64,000 nt of DNA. Source: Candidatus Limnocylindria bacterium (GTDB lineage Bacteria > Chloroflexota > Limnocylindria > P2-11E). The notes beneath the pieces were generated by a model. It was not told where the DNA came from, made no database searches, and saw nothing but the letters and a program-made list of their open reading frames with translations. The stretch covers positions 149,444 to 213,443 of the forward strand of contig DASYTL010000035.1 in NCBI GenBank assembly GCA_036002305.1, read 5' to 3'. Each line of letters starts with the position of its first letter. Positions within the stretch are counted from its first letter, which is position 1. A program made the position numbers and the translations under genes. Positions 224-30,831 of this stretch are shown here, piece by piece.

Positions 224-1044
224 CCGTCCAACGCGTCGCCGAGGCGCTGGATGTACCGCTCGGCCGAGCGCTCGAGTGCGTCGCGTCCGCCCGTCACCAC
301 CTCGCGTCCGTCCCACGCGCCGTAGATGCGCTCGAAGCGGAACGGGCGGAGGCGGTCCACGATGCGGCGCACCGTCTCCGCCGAGAGCGGCATGAGGTTC
401 GGGTAGCTGTACATGAAGCTGACGAAGCGGCGATCCATGACCACGGTCACCGAGTCGCCGCTCAAGAGGAGTCCGCGACCATCGGCGCCGTCCGCCCAGT
501 GCAGGACCTGCGAGCCGTCGAAATGGCCTCCCGTATTGACGAGCGTGACGCCCGGCAGGATCTCCCTCCGCGTTCCATCCCACAGCCGTAGTGCGGGGGT
601 CGGGTGTTGCACCCACCGCGCATCCGCGGCATGGATGTAGATCGGGCAATCACCGAAGGCCTCGCTCCACGTCGCCATGCTGGCGTAGAAGTGCGGATGC
701 GAGATCGCGATCGCGCGAAGCCCGCCGAGCTCGTGGACCGCACGCACCGACGCATCGTCGACCACGGTCACGCAGTCCCACATCACCAGGCCCTCTGTCG
801 TGCGCGCGAGAAGCGCGCGCTGCCCGATCGCGACCGCCGGTGTCGTGGCGATCTGGAACAACCCTGGCTCGAGCTCGCGCACGGTGTTCGTGTGCCCCTC
901 GTCGCGCAGCTCGGCCATCGTTGTCCAGCGTTGGCCATCCCAGCCGACGTACTGCCGCTCGTCTTCGCAGATGGGACAGACGTCGGGAGGCCGCGGCGCC
1001 GGGGCGTACTGCACCCCGCAGGTCCGGCACACGAACGCTTCCAC
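220..1044 (-). CDS. MBL-fold metallo-hydrolase with N-terminal CxxC...CxxC zinc ribbon
   Basis: CRTCG...CPICEDE ribbon followed by MBL-like core (AISHPHFY, TGGHFDGS). GTG at 1044 preferred; the upstream extension to 1149 looks non-coding (Arg/Ser-rich). Confidence 0.65.
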   Translation of the reverse strand: MEAFVCRTCGVQYAPAPRPPDVCPICEDERQYVGWDGQRWTTMAELRDEGHTNTVRELEPGLFQIATTPAVAIGQRALLARTTEGLVMWDCVTVVDDASVRAVHELGGLRAIAISHPHFYASMATWSEAFGDCPIYIHAADARWVQHPTPALRLWDGTRREILPGVTLVNTGGHFDGSQVLHWADGADGRGLLLSGDSVTVVMDRRFVSFMYSYPNLMPLSAETVRRIVDRLRPFRFERIYGAWDGREVVTGGRDALERSAERYIQRLGDALDG

Positions 1045-5849: not shown

Positions 5850-6902
5850 CTAATTCCCCAGACAGCCCTCGGCGGCGAGGAGCTCGGCGTTGAGCACCGA
5901 CGCACCCGCCGCCCCGCGGATCGTGTTGTGGGTGAGGACGACGAACTTCATCCCCAGCACAGGGTCTTCGCGGACGCGTCCGACGGTGGCCGCCATCCCG
6001 CGCTCGGTGTCTCGGTCGAGAATCGGCTGCGGCCGGTCTCGCTCGTCGCGCACGTGGATTGGACGCTCGGGCGCCGTCGGCAGGCGGAGCTCCTGGGGGC
6101 GGCCGCGGAAGCTCCGCATCGCGTCCTTGACCGCGTCCACCGGCGGGGAACCGCGTAGGGCGATGCTCACCGCCTCGGTGTGGCCGTCCCGCACCGGGAC
6201 GCGGTTGCAGTGCGCTGAGAAGAGGAAGTCGGCGTCCACGAAACGTTTACCGTCCCAGGTCCCGAGGAACTTCCTCGTCTCGACCTTCATCTTCTCCTCT
6301 TCCTCGCCGATGAAGGGGACGACGTTGTCGAAGGCGTCCAGGGACGCGACGCCCGGGTATCCGGCGCCGGAGAGCGCCTGCATCGTGGTCACGACCGCGC
6401 GCTCGATCCCGAACGTCTTGTGCAGCGGGGCGACGGCGAGCGCGAACCCGATCGCGGAGCAGTTCCCGTTCGTCACGAGCGAGCCGGTCCAGCTGCGCTT
6501 GCGTCGCTGCACCTCGAGCGCGTGCATGTGCTCGGGGTTGACCTCGGCGATCATCAGCGGGACGTCATCGTCCATGCGGTGCGTCTTCACGTTGGAGAAG
6601 ACGTGGTGCCCGGTCTTCGCGAGCGCGGCCTCCCAGAGCTCGGCGGCCTCGGACGGGAGCGCCGAGAAGCAGACCTCGGCGTCCAGATCCGCCTTCGTCG
6701 GCTGGAGCGTCATGTCCGCGACACCCGCCGGCATCTCGCCGGGCGAGTGCCACGGCGTGACGTCGCCGTAGCGCTTGCCCGCCTTCGCGTCGCTCGTGGT
6801 GAGCGCCGCGATCTCGAACCACGGATGGGCGGCGAGCAGCCCGATGAAGCGCTGCCCGACCGTGCCCGTCGCGCCGAGGACCGCGACCTTCCGCCTGCGC
6901 AT
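5850..6902 (-). CDS. asd: aspartate-semialdehyde dehydrogenase
   Basis: VAVLGATGTVGQRF Rossmann motif, NGNCSAIG active-site Cys, SGAGYPG. ATG at 6902; the longer 499-aa ORF extension is rejected. Confidence 0.92.
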   Translation of the reverse strand: MRRRKVAVLGATGTVGQRFIGLLAAHPWFEIAALTTSDAKAGKRYGDVTPWHSPGEMPAGVADMTLQPTKADLDAEVCFSALPSEAAELWEAALAKTGHHVFSNVKTHRMDDDVPLMIAEVNPEHMHALEVQRRKRSWTGSLVTNGNCSAIGFALAVAPLHKTFGIERAVVTTMQALSGAGYPGVASLDAFDNVVPFIGEEEEKMKVETRKFLGTWDGKRFVDADFLFSAHCNRVPVRDGHTEAVSIALRGSPPVDAVKDAMRSFRGRPQELRLPTAPERPIHVRDERDRPQPILDRDTERGMAATVGRVREDPVLGMKFVVLTHNTIRGAAGASVLNAELLAAEGCLGN

Positions 6903-10966: not shown

Positions 10967-11925
10967 GCGCTCCTCCGCGCGATCGCGATCACGTCGCCGA
11001 GTATCGCGGACGCTGTGGCCTCGCCCCCCGCGCCCGGGCCGCTCCAGGTGAGCTTTGGCACGAGGTCGCTCTCGAGCGTGATCACGTTCGTCGGACCCGT
11101 GGCCCTGCCCTCGAGCGAATCCGCGGGCACCTCCTCGGGACCGACGCGCGCCTTCGTGGCGCGCTCGCCGAAGTCCGCGACGGCGAGGTAGCGCACGCGC
11201 GCGCCACGCGCCGACGCGCCGGTCAGCTCCGCGGCCGAGACGCCCCGCAGGCTCGCGCGCCGCACGTTGTCGGGGTGGTAATGGCGGCCCTCGAGGATCG
11301 AGACGAGGATCGCGAGCTTGTAGGCGGCGTCGTGCCCGTCCACGTCGTTCGTCGGGTCCGGTTCGGCATATCCGGCGGCCATGGCCTCGGCGAGGGCCTC
11401 GTCGAAGGACATACCGGTCTCCATCCGCGAGCAGATGTACGTCGTCGTGCCGTTCAGCAGGCCGCGCAGCACGCGCGGCCGTACCGCGCCGAGCCCGCGC
11501 ATGCCCGCGATCACCGGGACCGCCGCCGCGACCGCCGCCTCGAAGCGCAGCTCGCGCTTCGCCAGGCGGGCTCTTTCGTGCAGCGGGTTCCATTCCTTGG
11601 CGACGAGCTCCTTGTTCGCGGTCACCACGTGCTTGCCGCGGTCGAACGACTCGAGCACGAGCTCGCGTGCGGGATCGGTGCCGCCGATAACCTCGACCAC
11701 GACCGTGATCTCGGGGTCGTCGAGGATCGCGTGCGGATCCGCGGTGACCGGCACGTCGCCCGCGTTCCGTGCGCGTGTCGGGTCGCGCACCGCGGCGGCG
11801 ACGAGCTTCACGGGCCGGCCGGCCGCGGCGTCGATGCGGCGCGACCGGTCCGCGAAGGTCCGCGCGACCGCGGACCCGACGGTGCCGAGGCCGAGGAGCC
11901 CGACTCCGAGCGGTTTCGCGCTCAT
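10963..11925 (-). CDS. hom: homoserine dehydrogenase (short form, no ACT domain)
   Basis: GVGLLGLGTVGSAV, VVTANKEL, AAVAAAVPVI, NGTTTYI, DVDGHDAAYKLAIL. Confidence 0.9.
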   Translation of the reverse strand: MSAKPLGVGLLGLGTVGSAVARTFADRSRRIDAAAGRPVKLVAAAVRDPTRARNAGDVPVTADPHAILDDPEITVVVEVIGGTDPARELVLESFDRGKHVVTANKELVAKEWNPLHERARLAKRELRFEAAVAAAVPVIAGMRGLGAVRPRVLRGLLNGTTTYICSRMETGMSFDEALAEAMAAGYAEPDPTNDVDGHDAAYKLAILVSILEGRHYHPDNVRRASLRGVSAAELTGASARGARVRYLAVADFGERATKARVGPEEVPADSLEGRATGPTNVITLESDLVPKLTWSGPGAGGEATASAILGDVIAIARRSA

Positions 11926-12698
11926 CCGAGCGGCTTGCCCCACACGACGACGCCCACGACATCGAGCCGGATCCGACCGATCCCGTGCTGTTCGAACAGC
12001 GTCCGCGCGTCTGCCTCGAACCGGTCGCGCGTGTCCTTGAGCGTGGCGCGCGAGAGCGAGCTCGTGCTGGCGAGCATCGCGAGGTACTCGTCGACCGACG
12101 GCTCGTATGCGACCGGAGCCGCGCAATGCTTCCCCACCTTCTCGAAGTGACCGCCCTCCTCGAGCGACCTCAGGCGACCGTCGAAGTCCTCGTGGTGTTT
12201 TATCGGTGAATAGCGCTGGATCAGCGAAACGATGGCCGTTCGCCACTCCTCCTCCGGAAGGACCCATTCGAGCTCCGCGATCGCGAGGAAAGCGTCCGTG
12301 GCCAGCGCGTCCCGGAACCGAGGCATGACCATGGAAGGATCCATCCAGTGGATGCTCGCGCCGGTCGTGATCAGCCCGTAGGGCGGCCGGAGCGGCGCGT
12401 CCTCGGCTCGGCCGACGATCCACCGGATGGCGGGATCGTCCCCGCCGGGAAGGGCGCGCGCTTCCGCGATCTTCGCCTCCGACGGGTCGAGCGCGTCCAC
12501 CCGTTTCGCGAACGCGGCCAGCCCGCGCGTCAGCGCGCCGGTGCCGCAGCCGGCATCGAGAACGACGCGCGGCGCGACCAGGAGCGGCTCGAGCACCTGG
12601 AAGATCTCGCGGGGGTATGGGGGGCGGTGGCGATAGTTCCGCACGACATCCTCGTGCGCGAACGCCGCGCCGAGCTCGCGCGCGAAGGTCTTCCTCAA
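11922..12698 (-). CDS. class I SAM-dependent methyltransferase
   Basis: VLDAGCGTGALT motif I. TTG start overlaps the cinA-like stop (TTGA); its stop overlaps the hom ATG (ATGA). Confidence 0.75.
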   Translation of the reverse strand: MRKTFARELGAAFAHEDVVRNYRHRPPYPREIFQVLEPLLVAPRVVLDAGCGTGALTRGLAAFAKRVDALDPSEAKIAEARALPGGDDPAIRWIVGRAEDAPLRPPYGLITTGASIHWMDPSMVMPRFRDALATDAFLAIAELEWVLPEEEWRTAIVSLIQRYSPIKHHEDFDGRLRSLEEGGHFEKVGKHCAAPVAYEPSVDEYLAMLASTSSLSRATLKDTRDRFEADARTLFEQHGIGRIRLDVVGVVVWGKPLG

Positions 12699-13153
12699 CC
12701 GATCGCCCTTTCGAGCAGATCGAGAGCGGCGCCCACCGATGCGAGGCGGTTGCCCTCGCGGTCGAACGGCCAGTCGAACTTCTTCACGGCGGAGAAGTCG
12801 TCGCTGTCGACGGCCACGTAGGTCAGGCCAACCGCCTTGCCCGGCGTCGAGCCGCCGGGCCCCGCGATCCCGGTCACGCCCAGGCCGACCTTCGCACCGA
12901 GCCGAGCACGCGACCCGCGCGCCAGCGCGCCGGCGACGACCGACGACACGGCGCCGTGCCCGTGGATGAGGTCCGGCGCGACGTCGGCGAAGATCGTCTT
13001 CGCCTCGTTCGAGTACACGACGGCGCCGCCCAGGAACTGCGCGCTCGCCCCGCCCTGGGCGGTGAGGACGGCGGCGAGGAGGCCGCCGGTGCATGACTCG
13101 GCCGCGGCCACGGTGAGCTTGCGACGGACGAGGCGCGCCTGGATCGACTTCAT
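12695..13153 (-). CDS. CinA C-terminal domain / nicotinamide-nucleotide amidase (PncC-like)
   Basis: LTVAAAESCTGGLLAA, AVVYSNEAK, GVTGIAGPGG. Confidence 0.85.
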   Translation of the reverse strand: MKSIQARLVRRKLTVAAAESCTGGLLAAVLTAQGGASAQFLGGAVVYSNEAKTIFADVAPDLIHGHGAVSSVVAGALARGSRARLGAKVGLGVTGIAGPGGSTPGKAVGLTYVAVDSDDFSAVKKFDWPFDREGNRLASVGAALDLLERAIG

Positions 13154-26430: not shown

Positions 26431-27651
26431 TTACGCCAGCCGGTCGACCGCGCGTCTGAGGCGCCGGACCCCCTCGTCGATACGATCTGGCGACGGTCCG
26501 CTGATCGAGAAGCGGAAAGCGTTCGAGAGATCGCGGTCCACCGCGAACGCCGCGCCCGGCACGAACGCCACGCCTTCCGCGAGGGCGACGTCGAGGAGCA
26601 CCCGCGCGTCCACGTGTTCCGGCAGCCGGACCCAGAAATAGAAGCCGCCCGCGGGGTCATTCCAGGTCACCGCCGCGCCCGCGAGCTCGCGCGCCAGGGC
26701 CGTGCGCCCGCGGTCCTGCTTCTCGCGGTAGAGCGCGCGAAGCCGCTCGAGATGGGCGGCGACGCCGCCGCGGCGGTGGAACTCGATGACTATGCGCTGC
26801 GCGAGCGTGCCCGTGCTCGAGTCCATCGTCTGTTTCGCCTTCGCCATCCGGCCGATCGTCTCGGGATCCGCGACCACCCAGCCGACCCGTAGCCCGGGCA
26901 GGAACGTCTTCGAGAACGTACCGATCGAGACGACCCTCCTGTCCAGCGCGGCGAGCGGCGGGAGGTCCGGGCCCCGGTAGCGCAGCAGCGCGTACGGATC
27001 GTCCTCGACCACGATCGCCTCGTAGCCCGCCGCGAGGGCGAGTAGGGACTCTCGGCGCTCGAGCGACAGGGTCTCCCCCGAGGGATTGCTGAAGTTCGGC
27101 ACAACGAAGAACATCCGCGGCCGCGCGTTCGCGCGGCGGAGCAGGCGGGCGGCTTGCGCGACGTCGAGGCCATCGCCGTCGACAGGCGCCTCCAGGACCC
27201 GCGCGCCGTGATTGCGAAACGCCGACAGGGCGTTGGCGAAGCCCGGCGATTCCGCGACCACCACGTCGCCAGGCCGGAGGAAGACCCGGCACGCGAGATC
27301 GATCGCCTGCAACGCTCCGGCGCTGACGAGCACCTCCGCCGAAACGGCGCGGATGCCGCGTGCGCGAGCCTGATCCGCCACGAGCTCTCTGAGCTCGGGC
27401 TCGCCCTCGGTGATGCCGTAGCCGAGCGCGCTCGCACCCTGCGTCCGGATGACCGCGGCGGCGAGATCTTCCGCTCCGACGATGTCGAGCGCCTCGCGGG
27501 CAGGCGAGCCGACCGCGAAGGAGACGATGTCGCGTGTCTGGCGCGCGACGATCCCGATCGTCTCGTCGATGAAGGAGCCGAACACTTCGTGATCCGGGCG
27601 CGGCGCGACGCCTTCCTTCTCTTGCGCGCGCACTTGCCTGACGGTCGCCAT
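26431..27651 (-). CDS. PLP-dependent aminotransferase, class I/II (LysN / 2-aminoadipate aminotransferase-like)
   Basis: NFSNPSGETL, GTFSKTFLPGLRVGW (PLP Lys), FRFS. Confidence 0.85.
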   Translation of the reverse strand: MATVRQVRAQEKEGVAPRPDHEVFGSFIDETIGIVARQTRDIVSFAVGSPAREALDIVGAEDLAAAVIRTQGASALGYGITEGEPELRELVADQARARGIRAVSAEVLVSAGALQAIDLACRVFLRPGDVVVAESPGFANALSAFRNHGARVLEAPVDGDGLDVAQAARLLRRANARPRMFFVVPNFSNPSGETLSLERRESLLALAAGYEAIVVEDDPYALLRYRGPDLPPLAALDRRVVSIGTFSKTFLPGLRVGWVVADPETIGRMAKAKQTMDSSTGTLAQRIVIEFHRRGGVAAHLERLRALYREKQDRGRTALARELAGAAVTWNDPAGGFYFWVRLPEHVDARVLLDVALAEGVAFVPGAAFAVDRDLSNAFRFSISGPSPDRIDEGVRRLRRAVDRLA

Positions 27652-27884
27652 CGCCGTGCCCTCCTCTTCGATGGGATCGAAAAGGCCTCCCTTTCGGGAG
27701 GCCCTCTGCTCGCCTGGATCTGGGTCGTTGGTGCGGTCAGCCTCCCGAACGCGAGGAGAGCCCCGGCTCCGGGGCGATCGACGGCGACGGGACGATGGCG
27801 AGCCGCATGTGAGGAGGGACCGTAGCGGAGCGCCGCTCGCGCGGTCAACATGGGTCGCGCGGGCGGTGCAGCCCGCACAGTGTG
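27652..27884 (-). promoter_or_regulatory. attenuator-like 5' leader A (upstream of aminotransferase-ilvA)
   Basis: Contains a 23-codon uORF (27737-27808) whose UGA lies in the UCGCGUUCGGGAGGCUGAC box, an alternative pairing partner GGCCUCCC, a terminator-like hairpin, and then GAGGAGG-N7-AUG. Homologous to leader B. Confidence 0.6.
27678..27703 (-). terminator. leader A terminator/sequestor hairpin
   Basis: RNA GGCCUCCC-GAAA-GGGAGGCC followed by UUUUCG. Confidence 0.6.
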
Positions 27885-28154
27885 TCAGCCGCCGCTCATC
27901 GCCGGCAGGATCTCGACGACCCGCTTGCCGCGGAGATCGCCGTCCCCTTCGAGGAATCGCACGTCCTCACCGTCGACGAAGACGTTCACGAACCGGCCGA
28001 ACTCCCCGTCTCGGAGCACCCGTGTCGCGAGCTCCGGGTAGCGGTCGGCGATCTGGCGCACCAGAGCCGAGACGTCCGGGGCGTCGAACGACAGCGTCGC
28101 GCTGCCCCCGGCCGCGGCGCGCAGCGGCGTGGCGAGGCGAACGGTGATGCTCAT
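27885..28154 (-). CDS. ThiS/MoaD-family sulfur-carrier protein (C-terminal Gly-Gly)
   Basis: 89 aa beta-grasp-like protein ending ...EILPAMSGG-stop. ATG overlaps the ThrC-like stop (ATGA). Confidence 0.8.
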   Translation of the reverse strand: MSITVRLATPLRAAAGGSATLSFDAPDVSALVRQIADRYPELATRVLRDGEFGRFVNVFVDGEDVRFLEGDGDLRGKRVVEILPAMSGG

Positions 28155-29395
28155 CGCAGCTCGTCCACGTAGGCGCCGCGGAACTCGTCCGCGTCGGCGC
28201 CGATGACCGGGCCGAGCGGTCCCGACACGGGCTGACCCTTGTACGCGTTGCCGGTGATGTAGAGGACGACGCTCTCGCCACCCTGGAACGCGTTCCGCTT
28301 CGCGAGGGCGCGAGCAGCCGCGACCACGACGCCCCCGGCGGGCTCGGCGAGCACGCCTTCGGTCCGCGCGAGGAGGGCGCAGGAGTCGAGGACGTCCTCG
28401 TCGGTGACAGCGGCGGCGGACCCGCCGCTGGCGCGGATCGCGGCGACCGAGCCGTCGCCGTCGGCGGGCGTGCCGATCGCGAGGGAGCGTGCCACCGTCG
28501 TGGGCGCGCGCACCGGCCGGACCTCGCGGAACCCCTCGAGCACCGCGTCCGAGACCGGCGCGCATCCGACCGGCTGCGCCGCGTGGATGCGGCAGGGTGT
28601 GTCGTCGACGAGCCGTGCCGAGCGGAGCTGCGTGACGGCCGTCGCGGTGCGGGTGAGCAGCGCGCCGGATCCGACCGGCACGACGACGTGGTCCGGGAGC
28701 GTCCAGTCGAGCTGCTCGGCGGTCTCGAAGAGAAGGGTCTTCGAGCCCTCGGCGTAGTAGGGCCGCAGCGTGAAGTTGACGAATCCCCAATGCTCCTCGT
28801 CGGCGAGGCGGGCGCAGAGCCGGTTGACCTGGTCGTACGTGCCGCGGACGCGGACGACGGTCGCGCCGTACGCGGCGGCGCCGGCGACCTTACTTTCGTC
28901 GGTCGCCTCGGGCACGAAGACGAACGCCCGGAGCCCGTTGCGCGCCGCTGCCGCCGCGACGGCGCCCGCGAGATTCCCGGTCGACGCGCAAGCCAGCGTG
29001 TCGAGTCCGACCGCGAGCGCGCGCGCCAACGCGAGCGCGACCGGCCGGTCCTTGAACGAGAGCGACGGATTGCGCGAGTCGTCCTTCAGGTAGAGACGCT
29101 CCACGCCGATCGCCGCCCCGAGACGCGGCGCGAGATGAAGCGGGGTCCAACCGACGGTGTAGTGCGACGCCGGCTCGGCGACCGGGAGCAGCGGCGCATA
29201 CCGCCAGAGCGAACGCGGACCGCGCGTGATCTCCTCGCGCAGGAGGTCGGGATCGAGCGCCGCGAGGTCGTATTCGGGCTCGATCGGGCCGTAGCAGTCC
29301 GAACACACGTACCGCTCGTCGGCGGGCTGGAGCAGCTGGCACGCGCGACAGCGAAATCCCCGCAGAGCCGTGGTTCTTTCGAGCGTCGTCGCCAT
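28151..29395 (-). CDS. threonine synthase family PLP enzyme with N-terminal zinc ribbon (ThrC or MetM-like)
   Basis: CRAC...CSDC ribbon, NPSLSFKDRP (PLP Lys), ASTGNLAG. Translationally coupled to the sulfur-carrier gene. Confidence 0.88.
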   Translation of the reverse strand: MATTLERTTALRGFRCRACQLLQPADERYVCSDCYGPIEPEYDLAALDPDLLREEITRGPRSLWRYAPLLPVAEPASHYTVGWTPLHLAPRLGAAIGVERLYLKDDSRNPSLSFKDRPVALALARALAVGLDTLACASTGNLAGAVAAAAARNGLRAFVFVPEATDESKVAGAAAYGATVVRVRGTYDQVNRLCARLADEEHWGFVNFTLRPYYAEGSKTLLFETAEQLDWTLPDHVVVPVGSGALLTRTATAVTQLRSARLVDDTPCRIHAAQPVGCAPVSDAVLEGFREVRPVRAPTTVARSLAIGTPADGDGSVAAIRASGGSAAAVTDEDVLDSCALLARTEGVLAEPAGGVVVAAARALAKRNAFQGGESVVLYITGNAYKGQPVSGPLGPVIGADADEFRGAYVDELR

Positions 29396-29649
29396 CGTGA
29401 GACCTCCACATAAAAGGAGAGGCCTCCCGTTCGGGAGGCCTCCTATCTGCCTGGATGCGCCGAAGTCTCTGAGTCAGCCTCCCAAACGCGAAGCGGGCCC
29501 CGCAATCGAGGCCATCGCCATGGACATAGGCATCGTCTGGGCGCGACTCACCACGACGAGCCTACGAAGCGGTCCCACCCGCAGTCAAACGAGAGGTGCA
29601 CTCTGCACGAACGGCCGAGGTCAAAACGGCCCATCCCTAGACTCGCGCG
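29396..29649 (-). promoter_or_regulatory. attenuator-like 5' leader B (upstream of ThrC-like/ThiS-like pair); also the divergent hisZ promoter region
   Basis: 19-codon uORF MPMSMAMASIAGPASRLGG (29474-29533) with its UGA inside the UCGCGUUUGGGAGGCUGAC box, a terminator-like hairpin, and then GGAGG-N8-AUG. Confidence 0.6.
29411..29442 (-). terminator. leader B terminator/sequestor hairpin
   Basis: RNA GAGGCCUCCC-GAAC-GGGAGGCCUC followed by UCCUUUUAU. Confidence 0.6.
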
Positions 29650-30831
29650 ATGGAGGACCAGGCTCGTCCGCTCGGCCCGCCGCGAGGATTTCGCGATGTC
29701 CTGCCGACTGAAGCTCGCGAGCTCGGGTCGATCGAGCGGTCGCTAACGGACACGTTCCGCTCGTACGGCTACATGCCGCTCGAGCCGCCGATGGTCGAGT
29801 TCAGCTCCGGCCAGTCTCAAGAGCGGCTCATCCAGTTCCTCGACAGCGACGGCAGCCTCGTGACCCTCCGCCCGGATCTCACGACGGCCGTAGCGCGGCT
29901 CGTCGCCCAGCGCTATCGGGAGACTCGGGGCGCGCTGCGGCTCTCGTACGTCGCGCCGATCTTCCGCGAGGAGCCGGCCATGACCGCGAGCGATCGCCAG
30001 CTCCTCCAAGCGGGAGTCGAGCTCATCGGCGCTTCCGGTCCGCTGGCCGACGCCGACGTCCTCGCGCTCCTCGCCGAGGCGCTCGAGTGCTGCGGGTTGC
30101 GATCGGAGCGGACGACGATCCACGTTGGTCACCTCGGCGTGGTGCGCCGGCTCTTCGCCGAGCTCGACCCGTCCTCGCGCGACCTGGTTCTCGACGACCT
30201 GCGCCGGGGCGATCTCGTCGGGGCCCTCTCGCGGGCGCGCGACGCGGGAATGTCCGGCGAAGGCCTCGGCCGCGCGCAAGAGGCGCTGGGCGTGATCGGC
30301 AGGGGCATCGAAGAGCTGGCCGGCGATGACGTCAGCGAGATCCGCCACGTGATCCACCTCGCGCGCGAGCGCCATCACGGCGCGAACGACCTCTGGGGCG
30401 TCCCGAACATCGGTCTCATCCCACGGCTTCCCTACTACACGGGGGTCGTCTTCGAGGCGCTCCATCCGGACGTCGGCGTCATCGCTTCGGGCGGGCGATA
30501 CGACCTGCTGATCGGCGCTTTCGGCGCGCCGCGGCCCGCGACGGGGTTCGCGATCGACGTGCTTCGCCTGCACCGCGCGCTTTTCGCCGACGGCTGGCGG
30601 CCCGCGGTCGCGCAGCCGCTGTTCACGATCCGTCCGGGGGCCGACGAGCGGCTCGTGATGCGCTGCGCGGGCGCTCTGCGATCCGCCGGATTGTCGGTCG
30701 TGCTCGGCGATGTCGCCGAGAGCGCGGGTGTCCCGGTCGTCGCGGTGGACGTCGTCGACGAGGCGCGCGTGAAGCTCGTCGATGGCCGCGTCGTCGACAT
30801 CGAGACGCTCGCGCGGGAGATCCGTCGGTGA
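29650..30831 (+). CDS. hisZ: ATP phosphoribosyltransferase regulatory subunit (HisRS paralog)
   Basis: PRGFRDVLP, LRPDLTTAVAR, class II aaRS-like core without an anticodon-binding domain; directly precedes short-form hisG. Confidence 0.88.
   Translation: MEDQARPLGPPRGFRDVLPTEARELGSIERSLTDTFRSYGYMPLEPPMVEFSSGQSQERLIQFLDSDGSLVTLRPDLTTAVARLVAQRYRETRGALRLSYVAPIFREEPAMTASDRQLLQAGVELIGASGPLADADVLALLAEALECCGLRSERTTIHVGHLGVVRRLFAELDPSSRDLVLDDLRRGDLVGALSRARDAGMSGEGLGRAQEALGVIGRGIEELAGDDVSEIRHVIHLARERHHGANDLWGVPNIGLIPRLPYYTGVVFEALHPDVGVIASGGRYDLLIGAFGAPRPATGFAIDVLRLHRALFADGWRPAVAQPLFTIRPGADERLVMRCAGALRSAGLSVVLGDVAESAGVPVVAVDVVDEARVKLVDGRVVDIETLAREIRR

Follow-up and report, generated by a model that had tools for sequence, protein, structure and literature searches.

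The stretch of DNA analysed here (hereafter the window) comprises 64,000 nucleotides (nt) of contig DASYTL010000035.1 from a Candidatus Limnocylindria bacterium (Chloroflexota). Its minus strand encodes a ThrC-like pyridoxal phosphate (PLP) enzyme followed by a ThiS/MoaD-like sulfur-carrier protein, and hisZ and hisG diverge from position 29650. The 254-nt leader region between hisZ and the ThrC-like gene, read on the minus strand, contains a promoter, a methionine-rich upstream open reading frame (uORF), an antiterminator strand and an intrinsic terminator. A sequence-only reading of the window had singled out this uORF as the possible sensor of a methionine-codon attenuator, and the analysis reported here followed it up. 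The features of the leader and of the genes behind it are as follows.

29608..29596, minus strand: palindrome GTGCAGAGTGCAC, 7 nt upstream of the -35 element and outside the RNA
29588..29559, minus strand: sigma-70-type promoter, with -35 TTGACT (29588..29583), an 18-nt spacer and -10 TAGGCT (29564..29559)
29551..29474, minus strand: leader open reading frame (ORF) of 25 codons plus stop, (fM)SRAQTMPMSMAMASIAGPASRLGG and then the stop, with a probable leaderless GTG start
29550..29534, minus strand: segment 1, the anti-antiterminator strand UGAGUCGCGCCCAGACG, predicted by minimum-free-energy folds to pair with the region of segment 2
29533..29513, minus strand: four candidate sensor Met codons, ATG at 29533, 29527, 29521 and 29515 (codons 7, 9, 11 and 13)
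29513..29496, minus strand: small hairpin GGCCUCG-AUUG-CGGGGCC within the ORF (RNAalifold alignment columns 40-55)
29486..29477, minus strand: segment 2, the 5' strand of the antiterminator, UUUGGGAGGC, immediately before the TGA stop
29443..29408, minus strand: intrinsic terminator (terminator scan and RNAalifold), consisting of a stem-loop at 29443..29418 (segments 3 and 4) with an 11-bp GC-rich stem, and the tail CCTTTTATGT
29395..28151, minus strand: ThrC-like PLP enzyme (MetM-like; PALP and thrC family models), the first gene under the leader's putative control, with the Shine-Dalgarno sequence GGAGG at 29407..29403
28154..27885, minus strand: ThiS/MoaD-like sulfur-carrier protein ending in GG (MetO-like; PF02597)
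27651..26431, minus strand: class I/II aminotransferase, downstream of a 233-nt spacer and followed by an IlvA-like threonine dehydratase

Re-reading of the minus strand from 29533 to 29474 gave ATG CCT ATG TCC ATG GCG ATG GCC TCG ATT GCG GGG CCC GCT TCG CGT TTG GGA GGC TGA, exactly as first described. Four in-frame ATGs at alternate codons make this the single such site (within seven codons) on either strand of the window, which has 70% G+C, and any site with four ATGs in seven codons was present in 3 of 200 dinucleotide-preserving shuffles of the window. Against a Met background of 0.9% across six neighbouring proteins, the probability of at least four Met in 24 codons is 7e-5, which bears out the earlier impression that the cluster is very unusual. 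The frame remains open upstream of ATG 29533 as far as the GTG at 29551..29549, and the leader ORF probably comprises 25 codons from 29551 to 29474 rather than starting at ATG 29533; because this GTG is the probable start, ATG 29533 becomes codon 7 and all four ATGs would be internal. The TGA stop (29476..29474) lies directly 3' of UUUGGGAGGC, which is complementary to GCCUCCCGAA (29439..29430), that is, to the terminator 5' arm plus loop. The stop had been placed at a strand able to pair with the terminator 5' arm, and it does abut such a strand. Two further roles for this end of the ORF were considered and rejected. A functional micropeptide with a ubiquitin-like C-terminal Gly-Gly is discounted on the ground that GGA GGC is the antiterminator strand itself, and the ORF of two cassettes on the related L116 contig extends 2-3 codons beyond GGA GGC, which also counts against it (L numbers here and below designate individual loci or contigs). 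The internal GGGAGG is rejected as a Shine-Dalgarno sequence for a hidden start, as it has no start codon 5-10 nt downstream.

The GTG at 29551..29549 lies 7 nt past the -10-like TAGGCT and in frame with the four ATGs, and its position is occupied by ATG in relatives. All 30 distinct upstream regions share one arrangement, namely TTGAC[CGT] (TTGCCG in one), 17-19 nt, T[AT]nnnT (29 TAnnnT and one TTCACT), 7-10 nt and a start codon. The stricter pattern TTGAC[CGT]/TAnnnT followed by ATG or GTG occurs at two sites in the window, both of them leaders. No Shine-Dalgarno sequence precedes the leader ORF start in any of the 30 regions, unlike the structural genes of the locus, which have strong GGAGG sites. 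Judging from the position of the promoter, the 5' end of the leader transcript probably coincides with GTG 29551, giving leaderless initiation. The sequence-only reading had entered the missing Shine-Dalgarno sequence as a caveat; its absence holds, but it loses weight as an objection since the probable leaderless start accounts for it. In mycobacteria, leaderless initiation at AUG or GUG is amply documented (including bioRxiv 10.1101/834739).

Nearly all thrC-like leaders keep the palindrome, of the form GTGCA-N3-TGCA[CT], 8 nt upstream of the -35 element (7 nt in window copy 1), and it recurs in other cassettes of the kind described below about 17 nt (15-18) upstream of it. It is probably a transcription-factor site and, as such, would add a second layer of control. 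On the opposite strand (29630..29652), hisZ (plus strand, ATG 29650) lacks a Shine-Dalgarno sequence and has a -10-like TAGACT 6 nt ahead of its start, which may likewise be leaderless. The -35 region of hisZ is poor and overlaps the far-upstream part of the leader region on the minus strand.

An alignment of 22 leaders was used for consensus folding with RNAalifold and for an explicit test of the antiterminator (columns 66-75 against 118-127). The consensus fold consists of one small hairpin inside the ORF and the terminator, which is kept across leaders with some compensatory pairs; the small hairpin may act as an RNA polymerase pause hairpin, a role suggested by the predicted fold. The antiterminator helix is paired in 95.9% of cells, and two of its pairs show compensatory changes (UA<->CG in four sequences and CG<->UA in two). 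Its covariation score was matched by 1 of 500 shuffles, and slid registers pair in 28-70% only. Bases of the terminator loop take part in the covarying pairs, and these are dispensable for the terminator as such. The Shine-Dalgarno sequence of the ThrC-like gene lies beyond the terminator and outside the switch helices.

To follow the switch through its states, the window leader was folded with a 29-nt ribosome footprint masked. With no ribosome on the RNA, 8 of the 10 nt of segment 2 are predicted to pair with the ORF 5' end, and the fold includes the terminator. With the A-site on the AUG of codon 7, 9, 11 or 13, all 10 nt of segment 2 pair with the terminator 5' arm, and with the ribosome on the stop codon segment 2 is hidden and the terminator forms again. 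Together with the two covarying pairs, these folds agree with the geometry of ribosome-mediated attenuation that had been read from the letters, in which a stall on any of the AUGs yields the antiterminator and arrival at the stop yields the terminator. The duplex of segments 1 and 2 has a predicted free energy of -25.1 kcal/mol in window copy 1, equalled or bettered by 5 of 500 shuffles, and shuffles did as well in 7 of 500 cases for L167, 15 of 500 for L003 and 30 of 500 for window copy 2. An Rfam search returned no match in the window at gathering score, and matches with E<10 in 29350..29700 covered the terminator alone; the one to Phe_leader (E=0.08), likewise confined to the terminator, was rejected. 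A T-box-like GGGUGGGACCGC at 29580..29569 was rejected as a T-box: it sits in the -35/-10 spacer, upstream of the putative start site, and is therefore probably not transcribed.

The uORF, its frame and the position of its stop are kept in about 30 Limnocylindria relatives. These were drawn from 15 genomes with a ThrC-like gene at 72-82% identity, of which 11 loci reach the leader, and from metagenome contigs; a pattern scan of metagenomes returned 120 stretches, mostly chance matches, with about a dozen true cassettes once the terminator 3' arm was also required. The element is present at all loci that reach the leader, in 26 distinct ORF sequences. The commonest leader peptide is MR[LF][AV]LIPPMP[MI]AP[MI]PGL[AS][SA]R[SPWL]GG, followed by the stop. 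Among 17 distinct 72-nt ORFs of this type, variable sites fall at codon positions 1, 2 and 3 in the ratio 6/5/13 and minimum changes in the ratio 6/6/18 (binomial p=0.0025), and all four CGN codons are used at codon 2. Of the 26 ORFs, 19 end in TAG and 7 in TGA, with no sense codon at the stop position in any; their length is 24, 25 or 26 codons, so that indels have kept the frame. The uORF is evolving as a translated sequence by these measures. Conservation of the uORF and of its stop in relatives had been named beforehand as a check on the idea, and both are found, together with substitutions of the coding type.

The codon content of the leaders can be set against the genes behind them (internal Met codons, then Ile+Leu+Val codons).

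ThrC-like and ThiS-like genes only (window copy 1 and L116): Met 4 and 3; Ile+Leu+Val 2
ThrC-like and ThiS-like genes with aminotransferase (L167): Met 3; Ile+Leu+Val 6
ThrC-like and ThiS-like genes with aminotransferase and leuCD, and at some loci ilvA (15 loci of sufficient sequence, including L001, L004, L006-L009, L035, L159, L161, L165, L166, L168 and others): Met 2-3; Ile+Leu+Val 4-6
ThrC-like and ThiS-like genes with leuCD (L162): Met 2; Ile+Leu+Val 6 (5 Leu)
aminotransferase and ilvA, with or without leuCD (window copy 2, L096 and L120): Met 0; Ile+Leu+Val 5-7
thiamine pyrophosphate (TPP) enzyme resembling acetolactate synthase (L104): Met 1; Ile+Leu+Val 10

Met codons are kept wherever the ThrC-like and ThiS-like genes are in the operon, and none occur in the cassettes that precede only ilvA, leuCD or aminotransferase genes, which answers the further question of whether the Met codons themselves are conserved. 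The L162 leader peptide, MRLGAIRRMPLALMPGLLRRSGG, has lost most of its prolines. In that of L104, MQRNLLIGVIVVVLIERARMRPGG, the single Met adjoins the stop and is so near to it that a ribosome stalled there would also cover segment 2. It is the hallmark of classical attenuation that one and the same switch bears sensor codons matched to the pathway it regulates.

The pair of genes directly behind the leader belongs to the methionine/S-adenosylmethionine (Met/SAM) regulon, since orthologues elsewhere lie behind SAM-I riboswitches. The window ThrC-like protein matches an NCBI protein of a Candidatus Limnocylindria metagenome-assembled genome at 100% identity. Of the orthologous loci retrieved (28 of them with the ThrC-like gene complete), nearly all have a ThiS-like gene beside the ThrC-like one; the exceptions are haloarchaeal and Victivallaceae loci and one contig whose end falls inside the ThrC-like gene. 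SAM-I riboswitches (RF00162, 60-90 bits) stand directly upstream of 11 ThrC-like orthologues at 46-51% identity, about 100-220 nt ahead of the gene (L011-L013, L015, L017, L020-L023, L029 and L032). Acidimicrobiia and Solirubrobacterales are among the groups represented, and a ThiS-like gene neighbours each of the 11. The role in homocysteine or methionine synthesis that the sequence-only reading had tentatively assigned to the downstream pair is thus strengthened. In the MetM/MetO thiocarboxylate route, as relayed by a 2026 GapMind preprint from Hasebe et al. 2024, O-phosphohomoserine is converted to homocysteine, and MetM is reportedly often misannotated as threonine synthase. The regulon assignment of the pair is in keeping with this route, and the ThrC-like gene, now named 'threonine synthase', probably encodes such a MetM-type homocysteine synthase. 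The Rfam search found no SAM aptamer at the window leader, and the identical search detects SAM-I in the distant orthologous loci. By these comparisons, the leader-peptide cassette stands in the place of the SAM-I riboswitch on the ThrC-like and ThiS-like genes of Limnocylindria.

The ThiS-like carrier itself varies in form. In most relatives (L159 at 11242..12711, L161, L166, L167 and L168) it is fused translationally to the aminotransferase (...AMSGG-AVAPLP...HEVFGSFIDET), in L162 (7399..7692) it carries a 7-residue tail beyond GG, and only the window copy (27885..28154) ends exactly at GG. Exposure of the Gly-Gly end in the fused and extended forms would require cleavage by a protease. The second leader of the window is placed where the fusion of carrier and aminotransferase was split.

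We propose that the element is a trp-leader-type, ribosome-mediated transcription attenuator that senses methionine through its Met codons, and put the probability of this at roughly 0.7. The proposal draws on anatomy, conservation, coding-type evolution, covariation, the link between codons and operons, and predicted folds; from these we infer where transcription starts, that the uORF is translated, that ribosomes stall on it and what follows for regulation. Transcription would start about 7 nt past TAGGCT, which makes the GUG of the 25-codon leader ORF the 5' end of the messenger RNA. When Met-tRNA is ample, the ribosome would reach the UGA and its footprint would cover UUUGGGAGGC, the terminator would form and the ThrC-like and ThiS-like genes would be off. 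Were no ribosome on the RNA, segment 1 (nt 2-18) would pair with segment 2, again with termination. When charged elongator tRNA-Met is scarce, the ribosome would stall at Met codon 7, 9, 11 or 13 and cover segment 1, freeing segment 2 to pair with the terminator 5' arm and loop; the resulting 10-12 bp antiterminator would allow read-through.

Several observations weigh against this proposal. Initiation also needs Met, and severe starvation could therefore halt translation of the leader and favour termination. The U-tracts of the terminators are short (4 U). In L116 and L162 the duplex of segments 1 and 2 is no better than in 500 shuffles, and because its significance is this uneven across lineages, the anti-antiterminator is the weakest part of the model. 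Toggling between Met and Ile at codons 11 and 14 takes single third-position changes. In mixed operons codon 9 is the sole invariant Met and lies inside the predicted helix of segments 1 and 2, and constraint at the RNA level may be what holds it there. The independent leader lineages number about 9-10 and are related to one another, and being so few they make the association between codon and operon content a descriptive one that carries no formal test.

Four other explanations were weighed, and each is less likely than Met-codon attenuation. The one we take most seriously, while regarding it as unlikely, is a translation-coupled attenuator with no specificity for Met, which would respond to overall translation capacity or coupling, or to a number of amino acids together, and in which the Met codons would be incidental. 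It would suit the leaders of mixed operons, in which a mere 2-3 Met codons are accompanied by codons for Ile, Leu and Pro, the third-position nature of the Met/Ile toggles and the service of one cassette to several operons. The Met count, however, tracks the presence of the ThrC-like and ThiS-like genes in every lineage examined, standing at 3-4 when these are the sole genes and at 0-1 when they are absent; Met is strongly enriched over its 0.9% background; and in the sister cassettes Ile, Leu and Val codons likewise track genes of branched-chain amino acids. Arrest by the nascent peptide is improbable. Here the proline-rich peptide (IPPMPMAPMPG) would stall the ribosome alone or with a small molecule, by TnaC/SpeFL-type or EF-P-dependent pausing, and among close relatives the peptide is indeed well conserved, with 5-6 prolines that include a PP pair. 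Yet the prolines are largely lost in the window leader (2 Pro), in L116 (no PP) and in L162 (MRLGAIRRMPLALMPG...), all of which retain Met codons, and cassettes with quite different peptides share one RNA switch.

A TRAP- or HutP-type RNA-binding protein that recognises spaced AUG (or CCGAUG) repeats and controls formation of the antiterminator would explain why AUG recurs every 6 nt in the window leader and CCGAUG three times in relatives. We give it as little credence as peptide arrest: the repeats always share the frame of the conserved start and stop, the substitution pattern is that of a coding sequence, sister cassettes have in their place Ile, Leu or Val codons suited to the operon concerned, and no candidate protein is evident. 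Least probable of all is an undescribed class of riboswitch, or a degenerate SAM or T-box element, that binds its ligand or tRNA without translation. Such an element is brought to mind by the SAM-I riboswitches that control orthologous genes elsewhere and by the T-box-like GGGUGGGACCGC; against it stand the Rfam result (nothing at gathering score, and nothing at E<10 save terminator-only matches), the location of GGGUGGGACCGC in the promoter spacer upstream of the putative start, the shortness of the RNA before the terminator (only about 110 nt, evolving like coding sequence) and a consensus fold of just one small hairpin plus the terminator.

The window contains a second copy of the cassette in the 233-nt spacer ahead of the aminotransferase and ilvA genes, with the following parts.

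27884..27652, minus strand: spacer containing cassette copy 2
27878..27866, minus strand: palindrome-like element
27848..27843, minus strand: -35 element
27824..27819, minus strand: -10 element
27808..27737, minus strand: uORF
27703..27684, minus strand: terminator core

The uORF of copy 2, MRLAIVPSPSIAPEPGLSSRSGG followed by the stop, has no internal Met and ends in the same frame at GGA GGC TGA, and the two copies have the same terminator core. No leader occurs at the position of copy 2 in close relatives. Beyond the two copies, no further cassette was found in the window by a terminator-plus-repeat scan, a regular-expression search for the cassette core or a promoter-plus-short-ORF scan. 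In both copies the spacer between stop and terminator (29470..29450 and 27730..27712, minus strand) contains a common ATCCAGGC motif present in no relative, and the 3' part of the copy 1 ORF is nearly identical to that of L116. The shared motif and the L116-like ORF end suggest intragenomic gene conversion or a mosaic origin of the cassette.

Two further cassettes lie on the L116 contig (plus strand, about 330..560 and about 6300..6480). One leader, MLYRRCAMAMPKAHCTCVCAMGNHGLGGGS followed by the stop, is rich in Cys and Met (4 Cys, 3 internal Met) and precedes a PucR-type helix-turn-helix (HTH) protein; the other, VSQPIIVIVPVDLLVLEKAHQTLGGGRT followed by the stop, begins with GTG and has many Ile, Val and Leu residues; behind it lie genes for a PucR-type HTH protein and a TPP enzyme. 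It is unusual for a leader-peptide attenuator to control a regulator. It is reasonably likely that Limnocylindria possess paralogous leaderless leader-peptide attenuators built on one reusable GGGAGGC ... GCCUCCC-loop-GGGAGGC cassette, with sensor codons re-programmed operon by operon. Such a family would include the first sensor of Met-tRNA charging, in place of the SAM-I riboswitch of other phyla, as well as the Cys/Met-rich leader of a PucR gene, and the window would record the split of a mixed Met/Ile/Leu leader into a Met-only leader and an Ile/Val leader. At L159 (about 19913), L162 (about 10989) and L163 (about 5516), on the plus strand, a different strong hairpin, GGCCGGCGGCC...GGCCGCCGGCC, is followed by a T-run. 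It has a copy of its 3' arm upstream and follows a conserved small ORF of 47-54 amino acids resembling a C2H2 zinc finger, and may be another switch or simply a terminator.

The proposed mechanism follows the model of Yanofsky for the enterobacterial trp, his, leu, thr, ilv and pheA leader-peptide attenuators (summarised in PMC1183508). Shared with these are a short leader ORF with codons for the end product, an intrinsic terminator and, as predicted here, mutually exclusive 1:2, 2:3 and 3:4 structures, with termination favoured by a ribosome at the stop codon. The trpL leader has 2 Trp codons, comparable with the 2-4 sensor codons here. The Limnocylindria element differs in the amino acid proposed to be sensed, in initiation that is probably leaderless rather than led by a Shine-Dalgarno sequence, in a stop that abuts the antiterminator strand and in the reuse of paralogous cassettes with different sensor codons.

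It also matches that of the Mycobacterium tuberculosis ilvB1 leader, whose LVVI uORF has a stop at which the ribosome masks the antiterminator, with a stall at the regulatory codons letting the antiterminator form (PMC13236596). Like the element proposed here, the ilvB1 leader is a transcription attenuator in a high-GC, Gram-positive-type organism, and the L104 and L116-3 cassettes would be direct branched-chain analogues; the amino acid differs, there is no sequence relationship, and the phylum here is Chloroflexota. The mycobacterial Cys ribulon, in which leaderless polycysteine short ORFs sense by stalling and unmask a downstream ribosome-binding site (Canestrari et al., bioRxiv 10.1101/834739), shares a sensor ORF that starts from a 5' AUG or GUG, as it probably does here, and the use of one design at several loci. 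It controls translation without an intrinsic terminator, whereas the present element has a terminator/antiterminator switch and would sense Met. The SAM-I riboswitch (S-box, RF00162) controls the orthologous ThrC-like/ThiS-like pair by transcription termination and fills the same role in Met/SAM feedback, but it binds SAM directly and without translation, while the signal proposed here is the charging of tRNA-Met.

Methionine synthesis is known to be under RNA-level control by SAM riboswitches and Met T-boxes. Leader-peptide attenuation is not known to act on it. A survey of Actinobacteria gives no RNA element for Met operons and lists Met as S-box-regulated elsewhere. The sequence-only reading was aware of no established Met-codon leader-peptide attenuator, and a literature search, whose coverage left out many subscription-journal papers, found no description of one, nor of RNA regulation in Limnocylindria. 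The element is possibly the first ribosome-mediated attenuator that senses Met. A sensor made of Met codons poses a conceptual problem, in that Met is required for initiating the leader peptide as well, and a natural sensor of this kind, if true, would show that the design is workable. For an abundant, uncultured class of soil bacteria there is also a gain in annotation, as the gene labelled 'threonine synthase' probably belongs to homocysteine synthesis of the MetM type. The cassette family amounts to a natural codon-swap experiment, in which the RNA switch stays constant while the sensor codons differ with operon content, and offers direct comparative evidence on how attenuators gain new specificity.

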